Shown piece after piece: positions 2-43,706 of a DNA stretch of 64,000 bases. Origin of the DNA: an uncultured delta proteobacterium (GTDB taxonomy: Bacteria; Desulfobacterota; Desulfomonilia; Desulfomonilales; Desulfomonilaceae); the NCBI GenBank assembly GCA_963747865.1, contig CAVVHK010000109.1, forward strand, positions 1-64,000. Reading direction: 5' to 3'. Within the stretch, counting starts at the first letter, position 1; every line of letters begins with the position of its first letter. Below the pieces are notes generated by a model, which did no database searches, had not been told where the DNA came from, and saw nothing but the letters and a program-made list of their open reading frames with translations. Position numbers and translations under genes: made by a program.

Positions 2-3000
2 AAGGCTCGCAGAGCGAAAACACGATACTTCTTCACTTGGAATGTGAACGAATTTGTTCTCTGGGAGACCGGAGACGAAACGTCATCTCTTCGCGAGCAG
101 AATTATAAGTCCTGGCCTGTGGTCCGCGTACATCGCGACCGCCAACTTGATCTTCCTATGACCAGTGAGGCCGTCAAGAAATGGCTCAACGTTTTTCTGT
201 GGACTTTGCCAAACTGCTACGCGGCGCCGTGGAGATTGGCCTGAAGTCTCCAGACGAGAAATTCATCAATGCGCTTGAGTCGTCACTCAATATGCCAATA
301 CTCTTGAATCTTGAGGAGCTATCCTCCCGTTATCGGCACGCTCGCTTCAAGTCCGAACTCGACAATTGGATGAGGGGCGACCAGGGCTGGACAATCTTCG
401 ACGACCCCGAGGGCATCCAACAGAACCTTATCCGAGCTTCCAAATTCGCCTGCTATGCTCTAGTTAACAAACTGGTCTTCCATGAAGCCCTCTTGAAAAG
501 GTACGGCACCCGTCTAGGCAAGCTCTCGGTCCCGGATCACCTCGATTCGGGCGAGGGGCTGAGGAACCACTTGGAGGGCTACTTCGCGGAAGCGAAGAAC
601 GTCACGGGTGATTATGAGACAGTCTTCGGAGAAGTTCACACCAACCTTGGCAACCGTATTCCATTTTATTCGGACGACGCCGTTTCTCATTGGCGTGAAC
701 TCGTCAGCCAGATCCACGAGTTCGACTTCTCACGAATGGACTACAAGGTGATCGGCAGCATATTCGAGCGACTTATCAGCCCCGAAGAACGACAGAGTTT
801 TGGTCAGTTTTACACCCGCGTCGAGGTTGTGGACCTAATAAATAGCTTTTGCATCCAACGAGGCGACGAATTGGTGATGGACCCCGCGTGCGGAGGAGGC
901 ACCTTTCTCGTCGAGCGTACGCTCGTAAACGGGAGCTGCGCCCGGGCAAACACGGGGAGCTATTGTGTGATCTCTTCGGCGTAGATGTCTCCCACTTTGC
1001 GACGCATTTGACCACGATCAACCTTGCTACCCGCGATCTCATTGACGACAAGAACTATCCACAGATTATCCGAAGTGATTTCTTTAACGTGGATGCACAT
1101 AAGTCCTTTATTTGTCTTCCCCGGCGGGCGAAGGCTACTGGACTTGGCTCGGGTCAACACCGAAATGTCGAATTCCCTCCACTGGATGCGGTCGTCGGTA
1201 ATCCGCCATACGTACGTCAGGAAGATATTCGGAAGGCCAAGAAGTCGAGAAGCCGGGCTGAGTTGGAGCGTGGGACCAAAGAGTATTACCGATCCCTAGT
1301 CGCCACGGAAGCAAAGGCCCGCCTTTCGGGGCGAAGCGATATTCACTGTTACTTTTGGCCTCACGCAACGACCTTTCTAAAGGAGGGTGGTTATCTCTGT
1401 TTTCTCACGTCTAGTCAATGGTTGGATGTCGAGTATGGTTTTCGCCTCCAGGGCTGGATCCTCAGTAATTTTCGGATACTGGCTATTTTGGAAAGCATAG
1501 GAGAACCGTGGTTCATAGGCGCCCGTGTCGGCACCGCGATTACCATTCTGCAACGAGAGTTGGACGGCGGAGCGAGGATGGAAAATTGCGTTTGTTTTGT
1601 TCAGCTTCGTCAGCCAATTCGTGACATACTCTCGCACGACGGGACCGCTGCTGGAGCGGTCCGGGCGGCCGACTACTTTCGAGATGAGATACTCTCGCTA
1701 TCTGCGGACACTGTTAACGCTCGCTACAGAGCCCGTGTCGTTCGACAAGGTGACTTATGGGACAGCGGCGTGCGGTTGCGTGAAATCATGGTCCAACCTG
1801 ATGTTGAAGAGGGTGAGAATGAGGGTACGGGCGGGGGAGACGAACGGACGGGTTTGTGGCAGTGCGTACTACGGTGGCAAATGGGGCGTGTACCTTTCGG
1901 GCCCCTGACTTTGGTTTGAGATTCTGGACATGTACGGACGTAGCCTAGTTCCGCTTGGAGAAATTGCGGACGTTCGGTTTGGCGTCAAGAGCGGAAAGGA
2001 TGCTTTCTTCCTTCCAAGAGACTGCACGTCCGAGTGTCTCGAAAGATGCAAATACGACTCCGAATTCACGATGGAATACCGTCTTCCGAGGCGGACGGTG
2101 GTGGACGGTCACATTAGACTGGTACGATGCGGCGAGAAGTTGGAAGAGATTAGGCCAATTGAGGCTGAATACCTTGAATCAGAAATCCACAGCTTGATGG
2201 AGGTAGATGAGTTCGTTGTTCACCCGGCAACTTGTTCGCGGTCAATTCTTCTTGCCGGGCGAGATCGAGAAAGCATCTCGGACAAACACGTGCTCAGGTA
2301 TATTGAGTGGGGAGAGTCGCAAGGATACCATAAGAATCCAACCTGTGCTTCCCGTGCCACAGAGGGCCACGAATGGTACGATCTCACGCAACATAGCCGA
2401 CCTGACATTGTTCTGCCGAAGATTCAGCAATACCGGCTTCTCTCGTTCTTGAATCCGGCCCATCTCTACCAGAACTCGTCCCTGCTGGGGATCTACGATG
2501 TGCCGCAAGCGTTAGTGGAGCCGTTATGCGCTATTCTGAACAGCACTCTTGCCATTGTTTCAAGGCTTGTGTACGCAAGGATGCTTGGTAATGAAGGCAA
2601 CATCCAGTTGGATGTTTACTCGGCTAAGATGATGCTGGTTCCAAACGTGGCCGCCGGGAAAAAGACAGTGATAGACGCGCTTACCGAGGCGTTCAGGAAA
2701 ATGTGTGCAAGGAAGGCGCTTGGGTTTCTTTCAGAACGCCGTCTTCGAGCAATGACTCTGGAGCAAAAAGGAAAATCGCGCGAAATAGACGCGATTTCTG
2801 ATGTATCCGAGTTGGATATGAGTGACCGATTCGATCTTGACGATGCGGCATTCCGGTTGCTTGGCGTAACGTCAAGAAAGCAACGACACGAACTCATTGG
2901 TCGCATGTATGCGTACCTGCGGGAATACTTTGAATGGACACGTCAGAAGGAGGAGAAGGCGATAATAAACAAGAATAGGGCACGAAGGCACGGGGTGGTC

Positions 3001-3483
3001 CGTCCAGAGGAAATCGCATTACAGGTCTATCAGGAGATTTGCGACAATGTACCCCATCTTTTGCGTCGATATGATTCCGGCTTTTTGGACAAATCGAAGC
3101 CATTCGACACATACGATTTGCCATTAGCCGGCAGGCCGGAACTCCATAGGGACATGTACAGCCGCCGTGGTGTGAACTTCAAGAAAGGGAAGAAGGTCAT
3201 ACGTGCGATTGATACACGGATTCCAGAACAAGACGAAGTCATTTCGGCGGTTGCGGCATCAGGAGTGCGCGGGCTGGTGCGTGTCCCGTGTGAAATAGAG
3301 GAGTGTAATCGCATTTTTACGGAATTCAGCGCTTTCGTTAAGGACCGAGATCGGATTATCTTAGAACTGGTCGAGCAACGTACGGCAGATGAGGATACTC
3401 AAGTGAAGATCCGAGAAGCACTTCTGCCACTCTTGCATAGACACGTGGAATCGGGCGGCAGCCACCGAAGCCATGAGGAATGA
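2..3483 (+). pseudogene. N6-adenine DNA methyltransferase / type IIG restriction-modification (or BREX PglX-like) enzyme. It is split over four frames (2..244, 181..984, 849..1919, 1930..3483), and the 5' end lies outside the window.
   Basis: The 181..984 ORF carries motif X 'GQFYTRVEVVDLI' and SAM motif I 'MDPACGGGTFLVE'. The 849..1919 ORF carries motif IV 'VGNPPYVRQEDI' (NPPY, gamma-class amino-MTase). The 1930..3483 ORF is a long C-terminal (TRD-like) extension. The frame-2 reading is open from position 2. There are three frame switches in 3.5 kb. Confidence 0.6.
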
Positions 3484-3534
3484 TAATAGCGCCCCCACAC
3501 TCCACCCCCCTCCCGCAGGGAGAGGGAGACCGCG

Positions 3535-5337
3535 CTACCCTTCGGCCAACGACTCCAGGTGCTCCCACCGGGCGTAGACGTCGCGGAGTTGTTGTTCCAG
3601 CTCTTCCAAGCGGGCCTTGGCCTCGACGATCGCCAGACGGTCTTGCTGGTAGAAGGCCGGATCGGCCATCGTCTGGTGCAGCGAGGCGAGGTTTTTTTCC
3701 AGGGTCGCGATTCTCGCCGGCAAGGCGTCCAACTCGGCCCGCTCGGCATACTTCAACCGTCGTTGGGCCGGCGGCTTCTTGGCCGGTCGTGAAGCTTCCG
3801 TTTCCCGTTTCCCAGTGGAAGCCTCCGCAGGACCGGCGGCCGCTTGCCGCGTACGCCGCTGGAGCAGCCAGTCGTCGTAGCCGCCGGCATACTCGTGGAC
3901 TTCGCCGGCCCCTTCCAGGACCAGCGTGCTGGTGACCACGTGGTTGAGAAACTCACGGTCGTGGCTCACCAGCAACAGCGTGCCGGAGTATTCCAGCAGC
4001 AGGTCTTCCAAGAGCTCGAGGGTTTCGATGTCCAGGTCGTTGGTCGGCTCGTCCAGCACCAACAGGTTCGACGGCTTGGTGAACAGCCGCGCCAGGAGCA
4101 CGCGGTTCCGCTCGCCGCCGGAGAGCCGGGCCACCGGACTGCGGGCCTGCTCGGGCGTGAAGAGGAAGTCCTCCAGGTAGCCGATGATGTGACGCCGCTG
4201 GCCGTTGATCACCACCGCGTCGCTGCCGCCGGCGACGTTTTCCTGGATGGTCTTCTCGCCGTCCAACTGCGCGTGGAGCTGGTCGAAATAGGCCGGCTCG
4301 AGGTTCGTCCCGCGGCGGACGGTGCCCGCGGTGGGCTCCAGCTCGCCCAGCAGCATCCGCAGCAGCGTGGTCTTGCCCGAGCCGTTGGGACCGATGATCC
4401 CCACGCGGTCGCCCCGCATCACCAGCGTGGAGAAGCCGTTGAGGATCGTGCGCTGGCCGAAGCGATGGGCGACGCCCTTGGCTTCGATCACCAGCCGGCC
4501 CGATCGCTCGGCCTCGTGGAGCTCGCACCTCGATCGTGCCCGGCCGGTCGCGGCGTTGGCTGCGGATCTCCCGCATGGCCAATAGTGAGCGGACGCGGCC
4601 ATGGTTTCGCGTCCGCCGGGCCTCGATCTTGCGGCGGATCCAGACCTCTTCCTGGGCCAGCCGCTTGTCGAACAACGCCCGCTGGGCGGCCTCGGTCTCC
4701 AGGGCCGCTTGCTTGCGGACGAGGAACGTGTCGTAATCGCAGGACCAGCTCGTCAGCATGCCGCGGTCGAGTTCGATGATCCGCGTGGCCAGCTTGCGCA
4801 GCAGCACGCGGTCGTGGGTCACCATCGCCAGCGTGCCTTGAAAGCGGAGGAGAAAATCTTCCAGCCAGGTGATGGCTTCCAGATCGAGGTGGTTGGTCGG
4901 CTCGTCCAGCAGGAGCACGTCCGGTTCGGCGGCCAGGGCCCGGGCCAACAGCACGCGGCGCTTCATCCCGGCGGAGAGCACGGCCAGTTGGGCCTCGGGG
5001 TCCAGGTTCATGCGGCTGAGCACCTTCTCCACCCGGTAGTCGCCCGACAGACGGTGCTCCGGCCGGCGGCCGGCGGAGACGCAGTTGAAGACCGTGCCCG
5101 ACAGGTCGCCGGGGACCTCCTGGACCAGCATTGCGGTGACCAACTCCTGCTGGCGGACCACCTGGCCCTCGTCGGGTTCCAGCTCACCCTGGATGAGTCG
5201 CAGCAGGGTTGACTTGCCCTCGCCGTTGCGGCCCAGGATGCACAACCGCTCGCCGGGGTCGATCTGGAGCTGGACCCCGTCCAATACGCGGGGACCGCGG
5301 AAGCGGAGGCTGACGTCCCGCAAGCTGATCAAGGGCA
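3535..5337 (-). CDS. uup: ABC-F family ATPase (Uup-like, two ABC domains plus a C-terminal coiled-coil domain). It has one frameshift at about 4500-4600.
   Basis: N-terminal half (ORF 3953..5497, real start 'MPLISLRDVSL' at ~5337): Walker A 'GRNGEGKST', signature 'LSAGMKRRVLLARAL', Walker B 'LLLDEPTNHLD'. C-terminal half (ORF 3535..4602): 'GPNGSGKTT', 'LSGGERNRVLLARL', 'LVLDEPTNDLD', then a coiled-coil tail. Confidence 0.8.
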
Positions 5338-5515: not shown

Positions 5516-6105
5516 AATGGGGCTGTTCTTGTCGATGTCGGGGGTAATAGGGGCCAGGGAGGCTGATGTTGAAGCGGCCTTGAAGGAGTATTCCGCCGCT
5601 CATCTTGGCCGGTTCGAGCCGACAACGAAAAAGTCTCCTTCCTGGAGGTTCTCATACTCTCCGAATCAGACGGGAATACGACCGCTGTGTATCCGGGCGA
5701 GTTCTTTGAGTGGGATGATGCCGCCGCCCACTTGTCCCACTCACTCAACGTCCCCGTCTTCTCGTTCCATATTCATGACCACGATCTGTGGATGTACATC
5801 CTCTTTGTGGCGGGGGAGGCGGTGGATCAGTTTAACCCGATCCCCGACTATTGGGACGACAACCTTTTCGAACGAGGATCGGCAGCACTGGATGGGCAGC
5901 CCTGCCGTGATCGCCCGATGGTCTGCAACATAATCCTTCAGAATTCATGATCTCGTGTGGAATGCCGGAAGCGCAAATGGTCAGCATGCGCGAGTTGACC
6001 GGCGTAGCCATTGAGATGAAATCGGTTCGCCAAGCCGTCAGGAAATCGTTTGCCGAGATCTTCAGCGTCGAGCTGATCCCGTCCTCTCTGGAAGAGGTCA
6101 TCTAG
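5516..6105 (+). pseudogene. Hypothetical protein, apparently read through two frame switches (ORF 5085..5933 tail, ORF 5687..5950, then a 53-aa frame 5947..6105).
   Basis: Three consecutive open frames join end to end with a good coding look ('IPDYWDDNLFERGSAALDGQPC', 'MRELTGVAIEMKSVRQAVRKSFAEIF'). No recognisable family. Confidence 0.2.
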
Positions 6106-7272
6106 TGGCTATCCCCTTTAGTTACGGCTTGCGCAATCTGTGGACCAGAAAGGTCACGTCCGCGCTTACAGCAGGAGGCATGGCCTTAGTGACATTTGTC
6201 TTTGCGGCCGTTTTGATGTTGGCGGAAGGCCTGGAGCAGACACTCAGAGACACGGGCTCGCCCGACAACGCGATAGGTCCTGCGGGGGGGCGCGGAAACC
6301 GAAGTATCCAGTGTGATCGACCGTGGGGACGCCGGCATAATCGAAGTCCAGCCGGAAGTCTTCCAGGATGAAAAGGGCGACCCGGTGGCGGCAAGGGAAT
6401 CCCTGGTGTTGGTAACTTTGCCCAAAATCTCCGGAGGGAAGCCCACTAATGTCATAGTGCGGGGGGTGGAAAAACACTCACCCAAATTGCGTCCTCAAGT
6501 TAGACTCGTGGAGGGCCGGTATTTCAGACCCGGTTCGAGGGAGGTCATCGCCGGAACCAGTATGGCCAAGCGAATCGCCGGCGCCGGCCTGGGCGGGACT
6601 TTACGGTTCGCCATGGCTGATTGGACCGTCGTAGGGGTTTTTGACGCTGGGAAGACAGCTTTCGATTCCGAATTGTGGGCCGACAGCGACCAGCTAATGT
6701 CGGCTTTCCGCAGAAACGCATATTCGGTGGTTGTCTTGAAGGTCCCGGGAAAAGAATCGTTTAGGGACATCAAAAAACATCTGGAAAAAGACCCCCGCCT
6801 TACGGTTCAGGTAAAGCGAGAGATTACGTTCTACCGGGAACAATCCGAGGTAATGTCAAAATTCATTCGCATCCTCGGAATCGCAATGACCTCCTTTTTC
6901 AGTGTCGGGGCCATTCTAGGCGCCATGGTAACCATGTATTCGGCGGTGGCCAACAGGACTCGTGAAATAGGGACCATGAGAGCGCTGGGCTTCCAGAGAT
7001 GGAACATACTCATATCTTTTTTGGCCGAATCGCTTATTCTGGGTCTTGTGGGAGGGCTGATCGGAGTAGCCGGCAGCTCGACGCTCCAGTTGATTACGAT
7101 TTCAACGCTTAATTGGGAGACGTTTTCGGAACTCGCATTCGGATTTTTGCTTACACCCCGAATAGCGGCTTACGCCATGGCTTTCGCTCTAATAATGGGA
7201 TTCCTCGGCGGAGCCCTGCCCGCTTGGCAGGCCTCGAAGCTGAAGATTGTGGACGCCTTGCGCGAGACTTGA
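6105..7272 (+). CDS. ABC transporter permease, FtsX/MacB-LolE family. It has one frameshift near 6290-6320.
   Basis: N-terminal TM helix 'VTSALTAGGMALVTFVFAAVLML'. There is a periplasmic MacB-like core. C-terminal FtsX 4-TM domain 'IRILGIAMTSFFSVGAILGAMVTMYSAVANRTREIGTMRALGFQRWNI...LAESLILGLVGGLIG'. Confidence 0.75.
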
Positions 7273-7347: not shown

Positions 7348-7501
7348 ACCCTTCTTGAAAAAACTCTAACTATGGCGCCAACGTGGCAATGCGCCATCCC
7401 GAGGGCCTATGAGCACAACGTTAGCGCGGGCGTTGGGGCTCTGCTCCAGGCTCGGTTGCGGCAAACGGTTGCAGAATTTTAGCCGGCCGGTCAAAACGCG
7501 A

Positions 7502-8093
7502 TCAGACTTCCTTCCGATTGTCCAGCGCTCTGGACAAAGTTAGCGGATCAGCGAATTCCAAGGTTCCTCCGACTGGGATTCCGTAAGCTATTCTGGTTAC
7601 CACCGTACCCGAGCCACGTAACTTTTCCCCGATGTACGCGACGGTCGCTTCTCCCTCTACGGTGGGATTAAGGGCTAGAATCGTTTCTTTTATTGATTGA
7701 TCGTGGACTCTCTTGGTCAATTCACGGATTCGTATGTCCGCTGGGCCTATTGCGTCCAGAGGGGAAAGGGTTCCGTGCAGCACATGGTACACTCCCCGGA
7801 AATGACCGGCTTTTTCTATTGCCATTAGATCCAGGGGGGTTTCCACTACGCAGAGCCGACTTCCCTCCCGTTTCGGGTCCGAGCAAATGGAGCAGGGGTC
7901 CACATCGGTCAAGTTGAAGCAGTTTGAGCAGAGGCGGAGGTTTCTTCTTCACTTCCCGGATGGCTGCGACAAGTGTTTGAATTTCTACGGCATCAGCGTT
8001 CAAGAAATAGAACGCGTACCGGGTAGCCGTTTTTTCGCCGACCCCGGGCAATTTCTTGAGGGCTTTTATTAATGCTTCCAGCGCTATGATCAG
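7502..8093 (-). CDS. recR: Recombination protein RecR. It has one frameshift near 7933-7944.
   Basis: N-terminal HhH 'LIKALKKLPGVGEKTATRYAFYFL...LVAAIREVKKK'. In the other frame come the C4 zinc finger 'RLCSNCFNLTDVDPCSICSD' and a Toprim domain 'RLCVVETPLDLMAIEKAGHFRGVYHVLHGTLSPLD'. The two halves join if one C is removed from 'aaacctccgcctctgc'. Confidence 0.85.
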
Positions 8094-8450
8094 GCTGCGC
8101 CTCCGAATCGTTTGATGAATTCATTCTGTCACAAAATGTTCTGTATTGTAAGAAGTGAGACATTCGGTGGCAGTAAGAGTTGACCTGGAGAAAACTTGTT
8201 GCCTAAAACGCGTTTCCAGGTGAACCGTTACTCGCGACCTTGCCGTTGAAATTATTTGCGATAATGCTATAAAGCTCATTTACCAGGCGTTCGCAAATGG
8301 TATATATCATGCGTTCATTCCCTCAACACTAAGGTCTTCCGGCAGCCGGAACAAACAGGCTGAACTCCCGCGTGGATCGGGATGAAGCTGCTGTCTTAAC
8401 GAGTCTATGGAGTTAACGGTGTTGATTAGCAAAATAAATAGGAGGCAGAC

Positions 8451-9092
8451 ATGGATGAGTTCGTGACGGCTCACAACAAAATCAAGATTGACGCCACGGT
8501 AGCGGCCTTTAAGAAACATGATTTTGACGCTCGTCCCTTCCAAAGCAAAGAAGATGTGGCTCAGTTCATTATGGCAGCCGCAGCGGACTGCAAAACAGTG
8601 GGGATTGCCGGAACTCATACAGTGCGGGCTTTGGGAGTCCTCCCGATGCTGGAACAGGCAGGGAAGACGCTTTATGACCACTGGAAATTTCAGCCGGGCA
8701 CGCCTGAAGAGTTGGATTGCCGCAAGAAACAGATGACATGCGATCTATTCCTGTCTTCCGCAAACGCTGTCACGATGACCGGAGAAATCGTTAATCGGGA
8801 CGGATGCGGCAATCGAATCAACGCGATGACTTTTGGCCCGGGAAAGGTTATCATTGTTGTAGGCAGGAATAAAATAACCACCGACTTGGACGCGGCTTTT
8901 GAACGCATCGAATTCACAGCGGCTCCCATAAGAGCAATAAGCCTTAATCGGAAGACTCCGTGCGCTTCCGCGGGGTTATGCATGGACTGCGATTCACCTC
9001 AAAGGATCTGCCGGATAACCAGTGTGATACATAGAAAACCAATGATGACCAATATAACAGTCGCCATTATCGACGAGGAGCTTGGATACTAG
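8451..9092 (+). CDS. LUD-domain (LutC/YkgG-like, DUF162) protein
   Basis: 213-aa ORF with a good RBS-like context. The motif 'CGNRINAMTFGPGKVIIVVG' is typical of the lactate-utilisation LUD fold. It overlaps the next gene by 11 nt. Confidence 0.55.
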   Translation: MDEFVTAHNKIKIDATVAAFKKHDFDARPFQSKEDVAQFIMAAAADCKTVGIAGTHTVRALGVLPMLEQAGKTLYDHWKFQPGTPEELDCRKKQMTCDLFLSSANAVTMTGEIVNRDGCGNRINAMTFGPGKVIIVVGRNKITTDLDAAFERIEFTAAPIRAISLNRKTPCASAGLCMDCDSPQRICRITSVIHRKPMMTNITVAIIDEELGY

Positions 9093-34456: not shown

Positions 34457-34624
34457 ATGGACAATTTGACTTTTGGTGTGACTCTGATGCTAATCGGCAT
34501 GGGAGGAACCTTTCTTACACTGGCAATCATCATTCTTTTCACCAACCTGATCAAACATGCCTTTCCGGTTTTCGAGGCGCATGGCGGTCGTGAAAAGAAT
34601 AAAACCGAGGGCAGTTTAAAATGA
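34457..34624 (+). CDS. Small single-TM subunit, OadG-like (Na+-decarboxylase gamma-type)
   Basis: 55 aa, 'MDNLTFGVTLMLIGMGGTFLTLAIIILF'. 4-nt overlap with the downstream beta-subunit gene. Confidence 0.5.
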   Translation: MDNLTFGVTLMLIGMGGTFLTLAIIILFTNLIKHAFPVFEAHGGREKNKTEGSLK

Positions 34625-35770
34625 TCGAGAACGTGATCTACAGCTCCGCTGAACTCCTCACTGGAGTTCGCTTCCTGTTTACGCAGGGATGGCCCAATTT
34701 GATTATGATGTTTGCAGGATTTGGTCTTCTTTACCTGGCGATCCACAAGGAAATTGAGCCGTTACTCTTGCTTCCCATCGGTTTTGGGTGTGTGCTTGTT
34801 AACCTTCCGTTTTCGGAAGTTATGGACAAGCAAGGAGTGCTCAGGTTCTTTTACGATGTTGGCATAATTACGGAGATCTTTCCCTTACTGATTTTTGTCG
34901 GCATTGGCGCAATGACGGACTTCGGGCCACTTCTGGAAAATCCGAAGATCCTGCTGTTTGGCGCGGCCGGCCAGTTCGGTATCTTCATCACCCTACTACT
35001 AGCGCTTGCTCTTGGTTTTTCTAAGCTGGACGCTGTCTGCATCGGAATCATCGGCGCCTGCGACGGCCCGACCGCCATCTACGTGACCAGTCAGTACGCC
35101 CCTCATTTATTGGGACCGATATCTGTAGCAGCCTACTCTTATATGTCTCTTGTCCCCATAATTCAGCCTCCCATAATGGGACTTCTTACCTCGGAAAAAG
35201 AGAGAACCGTGCACATGGGAGCAGTGCGCGAGACTGTTTCCAGGAGGACAAGAATACTGTTTCCCCTTATGGTGACCGTGGTCACCGGCATAATTCGCTC
35301 CGAAGGGACTGCCGCTCATGGGAATGATAATGCTGGGGAATTTTATGAAGGAAAGCGGAGTGGTGGCAAGGCTTACCGGCTCGTCCGAGAACGAAGTCGC
35401 TAACACCGTAACTTTATTCTTGGGACTCGCCATCGGCGGAACCATGGAGGGCGGCAAGTTTTTGCGCCTTGAGACTTTGGGAGTCTTCAGCCTCGGGTTT
35501 GTGGCGATTTGTTTTGACACTGCCGCCGGGGTGCTCATCGGGAAATTTTGGTGTTGGCTTAGCGGCGGTAAGATTAATCCTTTGATCGGCGCCGCTGGGA
35601 TATCCGTGTACCCGATGGCCGTGCGGGTCGTTCAAGCCCAGGGCCAATTATACGATAAGAAGAACTTTCTACTAATGCATGCCATGGGAGCCAATACCGG
35701 CGGCCAGATAGGATCGGTCATGGCAGCCGCCATTATGCTCTCGCTTCTGAAAGGCATGGGGTTCATATAG
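34621..35770 (+). CDS. Na+-transporting oxaloacetate/methylmalonyl-CoA/glutaconyl-CoA decarboxylase beta subunit. It has one frameshift near 35290-35330.
   Basis: 'GFGCVLVNLPF', 'LLIFVGIGAMTDFGPLL...FGAAGQFGIF', 'IIGACDGPTAIY'. The continuation 'MGMIMLGNFMKESGVV...GAAGISVYPMA...GANTGGQIGSVMAA' is in another frame. Confidence 0.8.
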
Positions 35771-36640: not shown

Positions 36641-38554
36641 ATGCGAGAAGGTAGAATCCACAGACAGGTAGCGTTACTGCTGTTTGTTGCCGTATTCTTG
36701 TTAATGTCCGTTCATTCAGCTCCAGGTCAGGGTGTTCAGAGTTCTTCCTCTCCTAAAGGGAGCGAGCCGCCTCTGATGGGGGTAGTCAAGCGCATCCAAG
36801 GCGTTGCTACCGTGGCTCGTCCAGGCCAAGCCCCTATGACGATAAACGAGGGTTTCGCCATACATGTTGAGGACACCCTGCAGACTGCCGCCAATAGCAA
36901 AGCTTGGTGGAATCAGGCGCCGGCGGATTCTCCAGTCCCGGTGCTGTCAACCGGAAACGCTTCACTGGGGGAAAATTCCTCTTTTGAACTCATCAGATTC
37001 GATTCGCAAGGCGGAGCCGAGGCGTTCACAGGAGAGGTGGGCTCAGGCCTTGTTCGTTTCATCAAGAATATCCCCAATACCAGTCCTCAGCCGTCCTTCA
37101 CGATAACCACCCCCACTGCGCTGATCGAAGTGTTGCCCGCCGATAGACCGGCCGACTTCGTAGTGGAGGTGCGAAACCAGCAAATCTCCACGATTTATGG
37201 CATATGGGGCGCGGTCCGGGTGAGGAATATTTCCGACAAATTTACAGAGGAAAGAATTGTCAGGTCCTGTCAGAAGGTCGATGTGGAAGCGGACAAAGAG
37301 CCAGGCCCCGTCACCGGAGTTTCCCCCCAGACATTGAAGGACCTCATCACTCGGACTACCATCCCCAACACGCTGCCCGAAGACGTTCCATCTTGCGGAG
37401 AGGGCGGTCCTGTTCCATACGAGATCGAGGGTGTCCCTGAGGGCGAATACTGGCCTCCGCAGGGCGGATGCCCATGTCCCCCTAACCAGGAATGGGTGGG
37501 TTACGGATGCGCGCCCTGCCCATATTGGAAATTCTACGATCCATACACTTGCAGATGCGTTTCCCGGTGCCGAAGCGATTACAATTGTCCCAAATGCCAG
37601 CGCTGCGAAGATGGCCATTGTCGTCCAAAGCTGTGCCCGCCGGGCGAATGGCTCAATTACGAAACCTGTCGCTGCGAGAGAAAATGCGACAAACAATGCC
37701 CACCAGGTTCCTGGCTGAACCCGAAGACTTGCACGTGTGAGAAAGAGTGTCACAAGGAGTGTCCACCCGGCCAGTGGCTCAATCCCAAAACCTGCGAATG
37801 TGAGACCAAGTGCCAACGCACCTGCCCGCCGGGCCAAAAACTCGATCCTACCACGTGTACATGCAAACGAGCTTGTGACAAACAATGTCCGCCCGATCAG
37901 TGGCTGAATTACGCGACATGCCAGTGTATGCCGAGATGCAATCTCCAATGCCCGGAAGGTCAGATTCTAAACAGAGAATTGTGTAAATGCGAGGGTAGTA
38001 TCCCTGCGTGCAACAAGACTTGTCTTCCCGGCCAAAAACTCAACCGAGTCACTTGCACGTGTGAACGAGCCTGCGATAAGCAATGCCCGCCCGATCAATG
38101 GCTGAATTACTCGACATGTGAGTGCATTCCGAGATGTCATCTTCAGTGTCCGGAAGGTCAGTTCCTTAACAGGCGATCGTGCAAATGTGAAAGCAGGCCC
38201 ACGTGCAAGAAAACGTGTTCCTCTGGTTATCGGCTGGACCCCGTCAGTTGCCAATGCCTGGCGATTCCACAAATTGAAAAGAAGGTCATTCAAACAAAAG
38301 GTTGTAGATCTAACGCCGAGTGCGGCCCGGATAGCGTTTGCCGCAACGGAAACTGTATACCCATAATACGGCATGACACGACCAAGCCTTACTGGGAGCA
38401 CCCAAAGACGATCATTCAGGAGCCGCACCCCTGGCCCGGCTCTGAAGGCAAACCCAAGTTCAATATACCCAAGTCCGATATACCCAAGTCCGATATACCC
38501 AAGTTCAATGTGCCCAAGACAGATCAAACACCCTTTAGACAGCAATTACGGTGA
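36641..38554 (+). CDS. Secreted protein with a FecR-like N-terminal domain and about 10 tandem 21-22-aa cysteine-rich modules (CPPGxWLNxxTCxCxxxCxxx)
   Basis: Signal peptide 'VALLLFVAVFLLMSVHSAPG'. Repeats 'CPPGEWLNYETCRCERKCDKQ', 'CPPGSWLNPKTCTCEKECHKE', 'CPPGQWLNPKTCECETKCQRT' and others. A DNA-level ~198-bp tandem duplication lies at 37873..38070 / 38069..38230. The C-terminus carries 'IPKSDIPKSDIPKFNVPK' mini-repeats. Confidence 0.7.
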   Translation: MREGRIHRQVALLLFVAVFLLMSVHSAPGQGVQSSSSPKGSEPPLMGVVKRIQGVATVARPGQAPMTINEGFAIHVEDTLQTAANSKAWWNQAPADSPVPVLSTGNASLGENSSFELIRFDSQGGAEAFTGEVGSGLVRFIKNIPNTSPQPSFTITTPTALIEVLPADRPADFVVEVRNQQISTIYGIWGAVRVRNISDKFTEERIVRSCQKVDVEADKEPGPVTGVSPQTLKDLITRTTIPNTLPEDVPSCGEGGPVPYEIEGVPEGEYWPPQGGCPCPPNQEWVGYGCAPCPYWKFYDPYTCRCVSRCRSDYNCPKCQRCEDGHCRPKLCPPGEWLNYETCRCERKCDKQCPPGSWLNPKTCTCEKECHKECPPGQWLNPKTCECETKCQRTCPPGQKLDPTTCTCKRACDKQCPPDQWLNYATCQCMPRCNLQCPEGQILNRELCKCEGSIPACNKTCLPGQKLNRVTCTCERACDKQCPPDQWLNYSTCECIPRCHLQCPEGQFLNRRSCKCESRPTCKKTCSSGYRLDPVSCQCLAIPQIEKKVIQTKGCRSNAECGPDSVCRNGNCIPIIRHDTTKPYWEHPKTIIQEPHPWPGSEGKPKFNIPKSDIPKSDIPKFNVPKTDQTPFRQQLR

Positions 38555-38606: not shown

Positions 38607-39323
38607 ATGATGTCGAAAGTTTTGATCCGAGTGTTTTGCATTTCATTGGTAGCTGGATTGATCCTATTGGGAATCGGCCCTGTGGTTGCACAGAAGGCGG
38701 ATAAGCCTATGGCTACCCAGGAAAAGATGATGCCCCAGCCCAAGGCTGGAGCGCCGAGCCCCGGCCAAGAGATGGCTGGGCCGCCGAAGGACAAAGTAGA
38801 GGAGTTTGCGGTCTGTTCCCCTGCTTTTCCCGGTGAACAAATAGTGGAGATGATGGAATTTACCGCAAAGCTTTCCCCTAAAGCGGCTGAAAAGCTCAGG
38901 CCGATACTGTTAAAGTGTGACCTTGACGTGAACAACGAACTTCTCGGCTTTCTGGAAGATATGCAAAACGAAGTGGCCGACGCTCAATTCGATAATGAAG
39001 AGCAGGAAAAACTGTTTCTCGCCGAAAAAGGAAAAGAGATAGAGGCCCAATTAGCTGTCGTACAGAAACCCGTCAACGAAGGCGATCTGAAGATGGTCGT
39101 ATCGGAACTTTTTGACATGAAGCAAGCTAGCTTAAAGGGCCACTTGGCTGATCTGGAAAAAGAAACGGAACAGGTCAAGAAAAGAATAGCCGAACGGGAA
39201 AAATTGAAGGGCCAAATAGTCGATCGCAAGATCAAGGAGATGGCGTCAAGCGTGGAGCAGCCGGCTCAACAAAAGGCTCAAGGAGAAAAGGCTCAGGCTG
39301 AAGATCCTTTGGATTGGGATTAG
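38607..39323 (+). CDS. Secreted coiled-coil hypothetical protein
   Basis: AGGAGG RBS. Signal peptide 'VLIRVFCISLVAGLILLGIGPVVA'. The rest is acidic and helical. Confidence 0.5.
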   Translation: MMSKVLIRVFCISLVAGLILLGIGPVVAQKADKPMATQEKMMPQPKAGAPSPGQEMAGPPKDKVEEFAVCSPAFPGEQIVEMMEFTAKLSPKAAEKLRPILLKCDLDVNNELLGFLEDMQNEVADAQFDNEEQEKLFLAEKGKEIEAQLAVVQKPVNEGDLKMVVSELFDMKQASLKGHLADLEKETEQVKKRIAEREKLKGQIVDRKIKEMASSVEQPAQQKAQGEKAQAEDPLDWD

Positions 39324-39387
39324 CGGAAAACCGGATAATTGTGGGTCAAGTATTTCGTGTTCTTGTCATTCCAACAAATTTGGACAA

Positions 39388-39738
39388 ATGAAAGGATGGC
39401 GCCACATGAGCGAAAATGAAAAAGAAAGAAATCCAGAGGTTAATGAGACCGACGTTCCCGAATTGGACCCGAAGGTGGAATCGAGAAGAGAGTTTTTTTC
39501 CAGTCTAGGGAAATGGTCGAAAGTCGTAATCGCCGCGGTCGTTTTGGGCGAAGCGGTCGGCGCGCCTGAAGCCTCTTCGTATTGGAGCAACGGCGGTTGG
39601 CACAACGGTGGCTGGCATAACGGCGGTTGGCATAACGGCGGCTGGCACAATGGCGGCTGGTGGAATGGCGGTTGGAAAAACAAATGGAATAACGGCGGCT
39701 GGTATAATGGTGGTTGGTCCAACTACTACAGCAAATAA
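39388..39738 (+). CDS. Small Tat-signal peptide/protein with a C-terminal Gly/Trp repeat array (GGWHN x4, GGWWN, GGWKN, GGWYN, GGWSN). Candidate rSAM substrate.
   Basis: Twin-arginine motif 'SRREFFSSLG' plus h-region 'VVIAAVVLGEAVGAPEA'. The C-terminus is encoded by 15-bp tandem repeats (aacggcggctggcac...) spanning 39589-39725. The nearest downstream ORFs are a Cys-motif protein at 240 nt and a radical SAM/SPASM enzyme. Confidence 0.55.
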   Translation: MKGWRHMSENEKERNPEVNETDVPELDPKVESRREFFSSLGKWSKVVIAAVVLGEAVGAPEASSYWSNGGWHNGGWHNGGWHNGGWHNGGWWNGGWKNKWNNGGWYNGGWSNYYSK

Positions 39739-40024
39739 ATGTCGATCCGCGGGCGTCGGCTCCATTAGCGGGAAGTTTGCGTGAAAGCGCCTCCGGGGAG
39801 GATATTCCTATTGGAAATCTCTCCCCTGGGCTTCCCTTCCCGAATTCCGTATCCGGCGCAGGACGGGCGCCGAAATCCCACAGGCGGGAACGCGTCGACC
39901 GGACGCCCCTTTTAGCAGCGTCCCAACTTCTTTAAGGCTCCGCAAAGGCGTTATACCGTATGCATTCGGAGATGGCGTGAATCGTTGTGAATGCAATCAA
40001 CGACTTTTTCCCACGGAGGCCCTT

Positions 40025-40825
40025 ATGCCAATGCTATGTAACATTCCGACATCTCTCTCAACATCCGCTCAATTCAAGAATATCGTTGTTAGATCTTCAA
40101 GCGTAGCGGAGCTTTTGTCTGTGGCTCGTGAGGTTGACAGAGATCGCCTCCACGGACTACAGATTATATCGCTTGTAGACGACCCCAAGCCTCTCGCCTC
40201 TCTCTCGGAGCCGATCACGCTGGATCTGGTTGTCGAGTCGTCATCGGAGTTTTCCTCCATTTACAAGTACGCGGAGCTGCTACGAAAGCATCCAATAAGG
40301 CTTACCGTGCCGGTGACCCCCGGTTTCGTCAAGGCAGTCAGGCTGGCTTTGTCCTTGAACATACCCGTGAAACTTGAAGTGGGGCAGCCTGACGTTGAGA
40401 TGACCGAAGAGCTGGGGGCCTTGGCAAGGTTTTATCTCTACCATCAGACCGTTAGCCAACCTATGGAATTCTTTCACAGCGCGCTACTCGGTTTTTATTT
40501 GGACGACCCGGTATCTCTGTGGAAAATACAAGAGGAAGATCCCGATTCATTTGGTTATTTCGATGACACCGGAAGGAACCATCTTTCCCGTCGTCTAGTG
40601 GGCCATCGATTGCCGCAGGAAGTCCGAGAATACATAGCCGGAAATCTGGAGGCTGTGCCGTCAGTTTTACAGACTTGCCGGGATTGCCGATATTTGAAAT
40701 CTTGCGCAGGCTATTTCAAGTTTCCTTCCACCGACTATGATTGCTCCGGAATTCGGGAGTTGCTGGGGATTTTGATGGAGGCGGCTCTCGAGCTTAAGAA
40801 AACCTACCAATCTACAGAAAAATAG
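40025..40825 (+). CDS. Hypothetical protein with a C-terminal Cys motif (CRDCRYLKSCAGYFKFPSTDYDC), SPASM-like, with no radical-SAM core
   Basis: GGAGG RBS before the ATG at 40025. There is no CX3CX2C. The C-terminal spacing C-x2-C-x5-C-x3..-C resembles a SPASM/twitch half-domain. 10-nt gap to the rSAM gene. Confidence 0.5.
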   Translation: MPMLCNIPTSLSTSAQFKNIVVRSSSVAELLSVAREVDRDRLHGLQIISLVDDPKPLASLSEPITLDLVVESSSEFSSIYKYAELLRKHPIRLTVPVTPGFVKAVRLALSLNIPVKLEVGQPDVEMTEELGALARFYLYHQTVSQPMEFFHSALLGFYLDDPVSLWKIQEEDPDSFGYFDDTGRNHLSRRLVGHRLPQEVREYIAGNLEAVPSVLQTCRDCRYLKSCAGYFKFPSTDYDCSGIRELLGILMEAALELKKTYQSTEK

Positions 40826-40834
40826 GATGCGACA

Positions 40835-41989
40835 TTGAATCCGAATTGCATTTCTATGATCTTTTTGCCCACGCTCAAATGCAATGCGGCATGCGAGTAC
40901 TGTTTCGAACATAAGACAGATGAAGTGATGTCCACAGCAAGATTCGCGACGTTGCTCACAAAGCTGCTGGACTACTTGGAAGTCGCGGGCCTGGGAGGCG
41001 CAAAGATATTCTGGCAAGGCGGAGAAATCCTGACCATGGACCCGGCCTGGTTCGATGAGGCTTTGGCGCTGATCAACAAACAGGCCGAGGAACGAGGGCT
41101 CCGCATCGACAACGAATTGCAGACCAATCTCGTCGGCTACTCCCCTCGCTGGAATGCAGTTATAAAGCATATGTTTCTGAATCAATTGGGCTCATCACTG
41201 GATTTCCCCAATCTCCACCGGAAACTTCCCGGCGGTAAGCCTGAAGAATTCAACAGCTTGTGGCTCAAGAAATACCGAGAAGCTCGCTCCAACGGAATAG
41301 CCGTTGGGGTAATAACGCTACCCAACAGAGCCACGCTAAAGGTCGGACCGGAAGATTTTTATCATTATTTTACTCAAGAGATCGGACTAACCGGATTTCA
41401 GGTCAATTCCCCCTTTCCGGGCGGGCCCGCGAGCGATCACAAGGATAGGCTTCTTCCGGATATGGACGAATATGCGCGCTTCTGCGTGGGTCTAATAGAC
41501 GTTTGGCTAAAAGAAGGATACCCGCGTGGAATAGGCATTTCTCCCTATGATGGGATTCTGCATTATTTCCGAACAGGCGGATTGTCGATGCTGCTATGTG
41601 GAATGCAGGCGGATTGTAGCCGGAATTTTTTCGCCGTAGATCCTTACGGTAATGTTTCCCAATGTGATTGCTGGGTTACGAGCTACCCTGAATTTCATTT
41701 CGGAAATGTTTTCCGGGACCACTCTCTTCAGGAAATTCTGGATAGTCCAGTAAGGGCGCGTTTTAGTAGTCGACCGATCGAGATAATTGAAAATGAAGAT
41801 TGCATAGAATGCGATTATCTATCGATATGTCACGGCGGTTGCGCTATTCGCGCATATTCGGCCACGGGCCGCTTCACCTCCAAAGATTCGTATTGTGAAT
41901 TCTACAAGAAGATATTCTCCAGGCTGGAACGGGCTTCCGTCGAAATAGCAGCGGGGAAATATAAGAGAGAAGATAAAATCCCCGCGTGA
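40835..41989 (+). CDS. Radical SAM/SPASM-domain enzyme (anSME-like peptide-modifying family)
   Basis: rSAM cluster 'CNAACEYC'. Auxiliary-cluster Cys residues 'CGMQADCSRNFFAVDPYGNVSQCDCW'. Canonical SPASM 'CIECDYLSICHGGC' (CX2CX5CX3C). Confidence 0.85.
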   Translation: MNPNCISMIFLPTLKCNAACEYCFEHKTDEVMSTARFATLLTKLLDYLEVAGLGGAKIFWQGGEILTMDPAWFDEALALINKQAEERGLRIDNELQTNLVGYSPRWNAVIKHMFLNQLGSSLDFPNLHRKLPGGKPEEFNSLWLKKYREARSNGIAVGVITLPNRATLKVGPEDFYHYFTQEIGLTGFQVNSPFPGGPASDHKDRLLPDMDEYARFCVGLIDVWLKEGYPRGIGISPYDGILHYFRTGGLSMLLCGMQADCSRNFFAVDPYGNVSQCDCWVTSYPEFHFGNVFRDHSLQEILDSPVRARFSSRPIEIIENEDCIECDYLSICHGGCAIRAYSATGRFTSKDSYCEFYKKIFSRLERASVEIAAGKYKREDKIPA

Positions 41990-42232: not shown

Positions 42233-42694
42233 TTACTTGGCTCCTTTGGATTTCAGGATCTCGACAATCTTGGGACGTCCCGCTACCGTGGCCAGCATCA
42301 ACGCTGTGGCTCCGCCTTGATTCTTTGCATTGATGTCCGCGCCTTTTTCCAACAAATAGGTCACTATTTCCGCTTTATCTTTGGTCGCAGCCTCCATTAA
42401 AGCGGTCAAGCCCCGTTCGTTTTGAGCGTTGACTTGCGCCCCGTTTTCCACGAGCAACTTCACAACATCCAAATGGCCTTCTCGGGCCGTCTCGATCAGG
42501 ATTGTGTTGCCTTTACCGTCTTTGGTGTTGACGTCGGCGCCCTTGGCGATCAATTCTTTCACTTTACCGGCTTCCCCTTCCATCGCGGCCACGGTTAGGG
42601 AGTATTCCAACTCTCCGCCAAAAGCTTGGCCATAAACTATCCCGGAGAATAAGAGCGCCGTTAAGGCGACCACACAGGGTATACTTTTCCTCAT
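42233..42694 (-). CDS. Secreted ankyrin-repeat protein
   Basis: GGAGG RBS. Signal peptide 'MRKSIPCVVALTALLFSGIVYGQA'. Four ankyrin repeats ('GADVNTKDGKGNTILIETAREGHLDVVKLLVENGA...'). Confidence 0.8.
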   Translation of the reverse strand: MRKSIPCVVALTALLFSGIVYGQAFGGELEYSLTVAAMEGEAGKVKELIAKGADVNTKDGKGNTILIETAREGHLDVVKLLVENGAQVNAQNERGLTALMEAATKDKAEIVTYLLEKGADINAKNQGGATALMLATVAGRPKIVEILKSKGAK

Positions 42695-42943
42695 TGTTCC
42701 TCCAAAAAACAATGTCAATCTTGGGTATTGTTTAGGGCTAGAGAGAAATCCCCTTTTCTCCACAAGAAAGGTCAAGTCAGCCCCAAATTTCCGAGCCAAA
42801 TTCAGCCCACACTCCAGGAAATATACCACAAAACGTTCCGTATTTAAGCCGTCTTTTTGCAGTGGAGCCAAAATGACGTTGATGCGGAAAACAAACTCTC
42901 GTATTTAGAGACTACACTAATTTGTCAAACCACGGAGGAGACA

Positions 42944-43706
42944 ATGAATCAAGTCGATTTGTCCGGTAAAGTCGCTGTAGTCACCGGCGCCGGAAAGGGT
43001 ATAGGTAGAGCAATAGCCTTGGGCCTGGCCGGTTCGGGGGCGAAGGTCGTTTCTGGCTTCGAGGACTGAGCAGGACATTGAAGAAGTCGCAGGCGCCATA
43101 CGCGCCGCCGGAGGAGAGGCTCTTGCAAAAACGACCGATTTAATGCACAGTGACCAGATTAATGCGCTCGTGGACACCACCTTGAGCGCATACGGCGGGA
43201 TCGATATCCTGGTGAACAACGCTGCCCGAAGCTTCCTGAGGCCTCTCATCGATCTGCGGGAAGACGGATTTGACAAGATTTTCGCTACGAATGTGAAGGC
43301 TCCTTTCTTGCTGAGCCGTTCCGCGGCGAAGATAATGGCGTCGCGCGGTGGAGGTCGTATTGTCAATGTTACCACCATCGGGGCAGAGCGCGGCGGACCC
43401 ATGATGGGCGCTTATTATGCGAGTAAAGCCGCTCTCAAGATGCTAACCATGTGCATGGCCGTTGAGTGGGCGCCCATGAACGTGCTGGTAAACGCCGTGG
43501 GACCAGGGATGACTCGAACCCACTTTAGCGAACCTATCTGGTCGAACCCCGAGATCGAGAAACAAATAGTCACTAGGATTCCCCAGGGCAGATTAGCTGA
43601 TCCTGAGGATATAGTCGGCGCCGTGCTCTTCTTATGCTCAAGCGCCGCCGGATTTATTACCGGCCAGACTATTTATGTGGATGGCGGGGCTTTGGCCAAT
43701 TCGTAG
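42944..43706 (+). CDS. Short-chain dehydrogenase/reductase (SDR). It has one frameshift near 43060.
   Basis: '[28 protein letters not shown]' (TGxxxGxG). In a second frame: 'NAARSF', catalytic '[11 protein letters not shown]', 'PGMTRT'. Confidence 0.75.

Follow-up and report, generated by a model that had tools for sequence, protein, structure and literature searches.

A tandem-repeat W-x-N peptide encoded beside a radical SAM/SPASM enzyme in Desulfomonilaceae is a putative triceptide-like precursor with a signal-peptide-like leader

Results

We analyzed a stretch of 64,000 nucleotides from an uncultured delta proteobacterium of the Desulfomonilaceae (contig CAVVHK010000109.1, positions 1 to 64,000), hereafter the window. 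It hosts a short gene whose 3' part is an array of 15-bp repeats encoding Trp-x-Asn (W-x-N) units, followed by an unannotated open reading frame (ORF2) and by the gene for a radical S-adenosylmethionine (rSAM) enzyme with a SPASM domain (Table 1). We propose that the peptide is the precursor of a triceptide-like peptide that is made by ribosomes and modified post-translationally (RiPP), which would be modified in the cytoplasm and exported through its own signal peptide. Our estimate of the probability of this full mechanism is roughly 0.55. We are fairly confident of the narrower claim that the peptide is an rSAM-modified RiPP precursor in which the W-x-N units are the modification sites.

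Tandem Repeats Finder detected an array of period 15 with a match level of 86% over the first 4.9 copies and of 72% over the full 8.9 copies. The array lies in frame within an ORF of the plus strand (39388-39738), and its translation is identical to that reported in the initial annotation of this sequence. The ATG at 39406 is the likely start of the gene, and the closest relative begins at the same position. The resulting precursor of 110 amino acids is identical to the database protein P0001 and is composed of an acidic N-terminus (residues 1-25), a signal-like leader with two arginines (residues 26-56) and a core rich in Gly, Trp and Asn (residues 57-110). The core contains ten W-x-N motifs (WSN, four WHN, WWN, WKN, WNN, WYN and WSN), in the order YWSN, four GGWHN, GGWWN, GGWKN, KWNN (encoded by 12 bp), GGWYN and GGWSN, and ends with YYSK and the stop codon. 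In the eight units of 15 bp, the codons for G, G, W and N differ only by synonymous nucleotide changes (GGC/GGT, AAC/AAT), and amino-acid changes are confined to x in W-x-N. This pattern marks the repeat as coding and under purifying selection, unlike a satellite. Together with the conservation of the protein, this rules out a non-coding satellite or an array of clustered regularly interspaced short palindromic repeats (CRISPR), in agreement with the initial annotation. The minus-strand ORF at 39366-39722 (QPPLCQPPLC...) only mirrors the repeat from the opposite strand. No further copy of the precursor was found in the window, and searches of Pfam and NCBIfam with the window precursor returned no family match passing the threshold.

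The precursor has 14 relatives in the database, and precursors are found at 17 loci or locus groups, including the window. We measured core and leader statistics over 22 family members and shuffled each core 2,000 times. Overall, 245 of 272 core Trp (90%) are followed at position +2 by Asn (237) or Asp (8). In the shuffled cores this occurs for approximately 15-20% of Trp, and the observed count was never reached for any member. When only the window core is considered, its 9-10 W-x-[ND] motifs compare with a mean of 2.2 in the residue shuffles, and the observed number was reached in 0 out of 2,000. The middle residue of the motif has 16 identities, including His (53), Ala (49), Tyr (36) and Val (20), and the distance from motif to motif ranges from 4 to 18 residues across the family. 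Trp with Asn or Asp at +2 is the sole conserved feature of the core. Given the 90% of Asn or Asp at this position, the free middle residue and the variable spacing, selection targets W and N at i and i+2, and neither a repeat fold nor His.

These figures bear on several proposals of the initial annotation. It had suggested that the units fit the motif of cyclophane-forming rSAM enzymes, and the family motif is indeed the one used by OscB and XncB for three-residue cyclophanes (PMC11002830) and by the dynobactin maturase for its Trp-Asn link (PMC10288494). It had also allowed either Asn or Lys two positions after Trp. Asn occupies this position throughout the window, whereas Lys is restricted to the middle position (WKN) and to a spacer (N-K-W). 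The number of motifs per precursor varies from 8 to 18 family-wide and from 9 to 17 among close relatives, whose RR-box is 58-96% identical to that of the window over 24 residues. This variation in unit number with a conserved leader, which had been put forward as a check, supports a modular RiPP core. On the contrary, the idea of a His- and Trp-based metal-binding peptide does not extend to the family. Dominance of His between W and N is confined to the Desulfomonilales subgroup, where precursors are rich in His (2-13 in the core), and other lineages have Ala, Val, Gly or Tyr. We therefore rejected His-based metal binding as the function of the family, because His is lineage-specific.

Two further features of the cores restrict the possible chemistry. 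No conserved Cys, Ser or Thr was found in the cores of the relatives, which leaves thioether or formylglycine chemistry without a substrate, and no W-x-W motif is conserved in the family cores. The only family model that resembles the cores is that of the cyclophane RiPP precursor GrrA/OscA1 (TIGR04260), which the Planctomycetales member matches with 18.9 bits (E 0.0018), below the cutoff of 31. The weak matches to TIGR04260 are restricted to the repeat part (profile positions 63-118) and leave the N-terminal part unmatched, which indicates that the leader is unlike that of GrrA/OscA1.

The enzyme encoded downstream shows the hallmarks of the rSAM/SPASM superfamily, which we defined by CxxxCxxC together with the seven-Cys pattern CX9-15GX4C ... 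CX2CX5CX3C ... C. The SAM-cluster motif is C9-x3-C13-x2-C16, the SPASM residues are C254-x10-G265-x4-C270, C316-x2-C319-x5-C325-x3-C329 and C347, and all these Cys are invariant in 22 homologs. The reading frame is open from a TTG at 40835, and the protein begins at CxxxCxxC, with neither an N-terminal extension nor a RiPP recognition element (RRE) domain. It matches the SPASM domain both in Pfam (30.2, cutoff 21.5) and in NCBIfam (57.4 bits, cutoff 27), and scores slightly below the cutoff for Pfam Radical_SAM (27.9, cutoff 29.5). When compared to curated families, it scores 137.6 bits against the dynobactin maturase DynA (NF041298, cutoff 450), 116.7 against the anaerobic sulfatase maturase anSME (cutoff 349), 100 against DarE (NF038005, cutoff 650), 74.9 against GrrM/OscB (TIGR04261, cutoff 310), 49.5 against YhhB (cutoff 445), 47.8 against XyeB (cutoff 450) and 43.9 against FxsB (cutoff 370). 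DynA is the top-scoring curated model for 22 out of 22 members of the rSAM clade, and the clade matches GrrM/OscB with an E-value of 1.4e-26 at best. The only sequence relative in the PDB is anSME. Hundreds of database relatives share 45-50% identity with the enzyme and are annotated merely as 'radical SAM protein'. Their source names include Desulfomonilaceae, Geobacteraceae, Terrimicrobiaceae, Chthoniobacterales and Competibacteraceae, as well as metagenome-assembled genomes (MAGs) of Planctomycetales, Acidobacteriota and Desulfobacteraceae. The closest relatives (55-58% identity) are from Desulfomonilales/Desulfomonilaceae.

Characterized relatives of the enzyme provide an indication of the reaction. 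OscB joins C7 of Trp to Cβ of Asn or Asp and XncB joins C6 of Trp to Cβ of Arg or Asn, and both form three-residue cyclophanes on an aromatic-x-Asn/Asp-type motif (PMC11002830). The dynobactin maturase forms a Csp2-Csp3 bond between Trp and Asn, and DarE is closer to anSME than to other characterized enzymes (PMC10288494). Three-residue cyclophane enzymes and daropeptide maturases have a common origin (PMC12912966). This known chemistry of the relatives, along with the lack of conserved Cys, Ser or Thr in the core, favors a Trp-to-Asn-Cβ cyclophane in each unit, with a loss of 2 Da each, as the best-supported reaction by analogy.

The order precursor, ORF2 and rSAM gene is the same in 15 loci (the window, L001, L005-L007, L009-L012 and L014-L019), so that the linkage to a downstream rSAM gene, already indicated in the initial annotation, holds well beyond the window. 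These loci span at least five bacterial lineages and several phyla, with sources in Desulfomonilales/Desulfomonilaceae, other delta-proteobacterial MAGs, Competibacteraceae, Planctomycetales, Acidobacteriota and Desulfobacteraceae. The three genes are co-oriented in the window, and in both L018 and L019 there is a 4-bp overlap of the ORF2 and rSAM genes. A divergent arrangement is found in L013 (Ca. Anammoxibacter), where a 304-amino acid protein (6047-6961) has an RRDFL..LGKYSK leader and a few W-x-N units, in addition to a long N-terminal extension and a C-terminal domain. Its gene is flanked by rSAM copies at 2949-4148 and 7438-8601, and a 569-amino acid gene also adjoins. No protease, ABC (ATP-binding cassette) transporter or other gene recurs across lineages, except for a DUF892 gene (six loci). 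This gene, of approximately 168 amino acids, lies upstream of the precursor in L009, L010, L014, L015, L018 and L019, all outside Desulfomonilales, and it is the copies in L018 and L019 that are recorded as DUF892.

The leader of the window precursor (S26-A56) is SRREFFSSLGKWSK, followed by the hydrophobic stretch VVIAAVVLGEAVG and by APEA. Across the family, an acidic N-terminus precedes (S/T/D)RR(E/D/N)F(F/L)xxLGKWSK, a hydrophobic stretch rich in Gly and Ala, and an AxA-type site immediately ahead of the first W-x-N motif. RR, F, LGKWS and the subsequent AxA-type site are kept in 22 out of 22 relatives. This leader reads as a signal peptide of the twin-arginine translocation (Tat) type with a signal-peptidase site, and it probably doubles as a recognition sequence. 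The periplasmic location guessed in the initial annotation fits such a leader. Since neither ORF2 nor the rSAM enzyme has a signal sequence, modification would have to take place in the cytoplasm. Across the compared loci, the cassette has no recurrent neighbor encoding a dedicated protease or ABC exporter, which fits export by the general machinery via the signal peptide of the precursor itself. RiPPs of the bufferin type are able to use general signal peptides, and macrocyclized peptides were noted to be poor Sec substrates (PMC11626156). By analogy, a peptide with many staples could plausibly take the Tat route, and we infer export by Tat rather than Sec.

ORF2 is the most constant neighbor of the peptide gene among the compared loci. 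No match was found for it in Pfam, NCBIfam or, by profile sequence search, in the PDB. An exhaustive profile search showed that it forms a discrete family, with 366 representatives among 1.84 billion proteins. Four Cys are invariant (C218-x2-C221-x5-C227...C240), as are the polar residues H89, R92, K116, E118, E148, H151, E170, E171, R190 and K232, and the CxxxCxxC motif of the SAM cluster is absent. In a profile-profile comparison, the C-terminal half of ORF2 aligned with the SPASM part of the rSAM enzyme (probability 65%, E 5.9e-5), with C-x2-C-x5-C...C positioned onto C316-x2-C319-x5-C325(-x3-C329)...C347. We take these four positions to be the ligands of the second auxiliary cluster in the anSME structure, and the Cys missing from ORF2 to be those of the first auxiliary cluster and of the SAM cluster. 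ORF2 thus looks like a degenerate rSAM/SPASM paralog that retains one set of Fe-S ligands and would presumably bind an Fe-S cluster. Its predicted fold is a beta/alpha repeat with no winged helix, and no RRE/PqqD-like domain was found in either ORF2 or the rSAM enzyme. If ORF2 binds the leader, its fold would differ from that of an RRE.

ORF2 is also found fused to a variety of enzymes, namely a HemN-like rSAM (P0196), HxsC-like rSAMs (P0237, P0259 and P0287), DUF483 with or without a methyltransferase (P0213 and P0255), and an rSAM of the window type (P0177). In L024 (1552-8361), two peptides share the leader (GRRQFLNGLGKWS, NRREFFNGLGKWS) but carry very different, non-repetitive cores. Downstream of them lie two window-type rSAM/SPASM genes (43-44% identical), a HemN-ORF2 fusion, a fourth rSAM gene and a gene of 103 amino acids. 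The fusion to several different tailoring enzymes, and the constancy of leader and ORF2 while cores and enzymes vary, suggest that ORF2 may be a leader-binding adaptor for the maturase. We also observed that the core of one of the L024 peptides has WVN, YPK, YAK and HYK triplets.

The remaining genes around the cassette vary among loci. Two co-oriented upstream genes join it in Desulfomonilales only. The product of the 637-codon gene has a 46% identical homolog in L001 and is present in L001, L005 and L007, and that of the 238-codon gene has a 44% identical homolog at the same position in L001 and is present only in L001, L005, L006 and L007. In the 637-amino acid protein, the unit 'CPPGxWLN(P/Y)xTCxC' is repeated about twelve times, and six units include W-L-N, the same type of triplet as in the core. 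This aromatic position is not conserved in its other units or in the L001 homolog. The C-terminus has IPKSD/IPKFN pentapeptide repeats. The spacer between precursor and ORF2 showed no terminator-like site, no unusual folding (z = -0.13 against shuffles) and no Rfam match. Base composition is unremarkable and does not point to a foreign island. Convergent to the rSAM gene and immediately downstream of it (42233-42871, minus strand) lies a gene for an ankyrin-repeat protein whose N-terminal segment is hydrophobic; it is not conserved at related loci.

Two plus-strand genes of the window are split. The beta subunit of a Na+-transporting oxaloacetate decarboxylase is encoded at 34621-35403 and 35318-35770 (Pfam positions 2-200 and 206-349), and a short-chain dehydrogenase at 42857-43069 and 43143-43706, with the Gly-rich motif in the first ORF and positions 55-234 in the second. 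Both are due to frameshifts or assembly errors, and indel errors in the contig are possible. The precursor gene is intact and matches its database entry despite these nearby split genes.

Two sets of genes from related loci were rejected as components of the system. The first are two small convergent genes carried by the metagenomic contigs L002-L004 and L020-L022, which encode a Gly-zipper lipoprotein (73-78 amino acids) and a periplasmic protein of 143-145 amino acids. They were excluded (L002, L020) because they occur only in closely related contigs. The second are the ZnuABC genes downstream in L001, which are not conserved at other loci.

Table 1. Features of the W-x-N locus, in window coordinates
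Feature	Position	Strand	Length	Remarks
Secreted Cys-rich repeat protein (Pfam CXCXC)	36641..38554	+	637 aa	Lineage-specific upstream neighbor
Protein with signal-peptide-like N-terminus and charged, coiled-coil-like C-terminal half	38607..39323	+	238 aa	No family match
Precursor peptide gene	39406..39738	+	110 aa	ORF list; identity to P0001; 14 database relatives
Conserved leader	39481..39573	+		
Core with ten W-x-N units, proposed modification sites	39580..39723	+		
15-bp tandem DNA repeat underlying the core	39588..39718	.		Tandem Repeats Finder
Intergenic spacer between precursor and ORF2	39739..40024	+	286 bp	
ORF2, unannotated family	40025..40825	+	266 aa	No signal peptide
Radical SAM/SPASM enzyme, proposed Trp-Asn cyclophane synthase	40856..41989	+	377 aa from ATG	

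Discussion

The proposed mechanism can be described in five steps. The precursor would be synthesized in the cytoplasm, where ORF2, probably as an Fe-S protein, would hold the leader (SRREFFxxLGKWSK and the hydrophobic stretch). ORF2 would then present the Gly-rich core to the adjacent rSAM/SPASM enzyme. At each Asn, the enzyme would remove a hydrogen from Cβ and couple this carbon to the indole of the Trp two residues upstream, which would produce one three-residue cyclophane per W-x-N and a mass change of up to -20 Da for the ten units. Finally, the leader would act as a Tat-type signal peptide, with export by the general machinery and a signal-peptidase cut near APEA/SS. The product would be a rigid peptide of approximately 54 residues rich in Gly, Trp and Asn, located in the periplasm or outside the cell.

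Several observations weigh against this mechanism. Its support comes from association and analogy, from which the action of the rSAM enzyme on the W-x-N peptide and the C-C chemistry are inferred. The enzyme is far under the cutoff of every curated family, including all cyclophane-synthase families, and its score for anSME is about equal to that for DynA. The window precursor is not a member of GrrA/OscA1 (7.1 bits against TIGR04260, E 7.9). The Tat assignment is a motif recognized by eye. Neither the TAT signal model TIGR01409 nor Pfam returned a signal match at threshold (one relative scored 11.9 bits against a TIGR01409 cutoff of 16.7, the window precursor was unmatched, and Pfam matched neither leader nor precursor), and the predicted cleavage site of the window, APEA, has Pro at -3. 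The structural model of ORF2 has a predicted local distance difference test score (pLDDT) of 68 overall and is confident for residues 1-120 only, and the probability of its SPASM relationship stops at the value of 65% given above. In two related lineages (L002-L004 and L020-L022), precursor and ORF2 occur with no rSAM gene within approximately 5 kb, where the enzyme may be unlinked or may not be needed by the peptide. L013 keeps the leader and two rSAM copies without ORF2, which indicates that ORF2 is not strictly required.

Since the scores are below cutoffs and the similarity to anSME is high, sequence alone does not fix the reaction, and the enzyme could modify W-x-N by other means than a Trp-to-Asn-Cβ cyclophane. 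Options are a C-O-C ether of the darobactin type, a C-N bond like that in the His-Tyr ring of dynobactin, hydroxylation of Asn or Trp, or epimerization. In addition to its similarity to anSME, about as high as to DynA, the enzyme lies outside all characterized families, and more than one type of link is formed by each of DarE and DynA, the curated relatives closest to it (PMC9055067, PMC10288494). However, all characterized rSAM/SPASM enzymes that act on aromatic-x-Asn/Asp triplets form a C-C cyclophane (PMC11002830), and a W-N distance fixed at i/i+2 around a free middle residue is the signature of this bond. The darobactin ether, moreover, requires two aromatic residues (W-x-W), a motif that is not conserved here. 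We therefore regard a different chemistry as unlikely, although it is the most probable of the alternatives.

A second alternative is that the peptide is exported unmodified, as a structural or adhesive repeat protein rich in Gly, Trp and Asn or as a lineage-specific periplasmic His metal binder, and that the rSAM enzyme and ORF2 act elsewhere. This could account for the two lineages in which no rSAM gene is nearby, and the two upstream genes also encode exported proteins. Metal binding would in turn agree with the His-rich cores of Desulfomonilales and with the ZnuA-type metal ABC transporter downstream in L001. Against this, the gene order is kept across phyla in 15 loci, and ORF2 and the rSAM enzyme are linked to an exported peptide despite having no signal themselves. 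No other candidate rSAM substrate recurs near the cassette. Most lineages lack His in the motif, conservation of the Znu genes does not extend to other loci, and crosslinking would be compatible with a His-based metal binder in a single lineage. We conclude that an unmodified peptide is improbable. Least probable of all is that the key enzyme is ORF2. It would then be a new Fe-S protein acting itself on the peptide, by modification or processing, and the rSAM enzyme would contribute an optional second tailoring step. In favor of this, ORF2 accompanies the peptide more constantly than any other gene, persists where the rSAM gene is missing and has many invariant polar residues beyond the four Cys, exceeding the needs of a passive scaffold. 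However, it has no CxxxCxxC, matches no catalytic family, shows fusions to several different enzymes that are typical of a binding module, and is dispensed with in L013.

Within the triceptide-like mechanism, a more far-reaching and, in our opinion, doubtful idea is that ORF2 founds a new class of RiPP leader recognition, in which a degenerate rSAM/SPASM paralog reads a twin-arginine signal (RRxFFxxLGKWS). If this were true, ORF2 would pass the core on to any tailoring enzyme with which it is paired or fused. It would also mask the signal until stapling is done, like the chaperones of Tat-exported redox enzymes, and RiPP maturation would be coupled to Tat export.

If the chemistry holds, three-residue cyclophane stapling would extend to a large clade that is currently annotated just as 'radical SAM protein'. 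Polypeptides of 50-100 residues with 8-18 consecutive staples would be of use in enzymology and peptide engineering. Two traits of the system are unusual for rSAM RiPPs. One is the twin-arginine-like general export leader with no dedicated protease or transporter, and the other is the conserved helper that has no annotated relatives and is fused to various tailoring enzymes. Such a helper would offer a new answer to the question of how rSAM/SPASM enzymes lacking an RRE recognize their substrates.

A literature search did not find this family described; its clade may figure in the similarity networks of the founding triceptide papers (Nat Chem 2020, JACS 2022). The window system belongs to none of the curated families of triceptide maturases, GrrA/OscA1 or daropeptides/dynobactins. 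It has what defines a triceptide precursor, namely aromatic(1)-X(2)-X(3) motifs encoded beside an rSAM/SPASM gene. It is an uncharacterized relative of triceptides, in which the signal-peptide-like leader and the ORF2 partner are features that we did not find described.

The comparison with known systems helps to place these features. As in bufferins, which are RiPP metallophores of the periplasm, an apparent general export signal peptide replaces the classical leader, there is no dedicated exporter or protease, the core is long, and the modifying enzyme is paired with a partner protein (PMC11626156). Bufferins differ in that an MNIO enzyme with a DUF2063 partner forms thiooxazoles on Cys, whereas the window system has an rSAM enzyme, and in that they use Sec, whereas the window signal has a twin-arginine motif. 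The His-Xaa-Ser system (HxsB/HxsC, TIGR03978/TIGR03977) also combines rSAM proteins, here a pair, with a precursor in which a three-residue unit is repeated. Three of the ORF2 fusions described above carry an HxsC-like rSAM domain, and the HxsB model weakly matches 16 out of 22 members of the rSAM clade. However, the motif is H-x-S rather than W-x-N, no score reaches the cutoff, and ORF2 lacks the SAM-cluster motif.

The closest parallels are with daropeptides and with Grr/Osc systems. DynA, the best model for the window rSAM clade, makes a Trp-Asn bond (PMC10288494), and DarE and the window enzyme share anSME as their closest solved or characterized relative. Daropeptide precursors have one short W-x-W core and usually lie beside ABC transporter genes, in contrast to the 8-18 tandem W-x-N units of the window family, which has no W-x-W rule and no recurrent transporter. 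The differences from Grr/Osc systems are that both enzyme and precursor score below the TIGR04261 and TIGR04260 cutoffs, and that the window family has the RR leader and ORF2, neither of which we found described for Grr systems. In common with them, the window family has a Gly-rich repetitive precursor with several aromatic-x-Asn/Asp units and a nearby-encoded rSAM/SPASM enzyme without an RRE domain, and the Trp-Asn/Asp pair joined by OscB (PMC11002830) is the pair of residues conserved in the window family. By analogy, the system would work like a triceptide pathway of the Grr/Osc type, with an enzyme that appears nearest to the maturases of dynobactin and darobactin.

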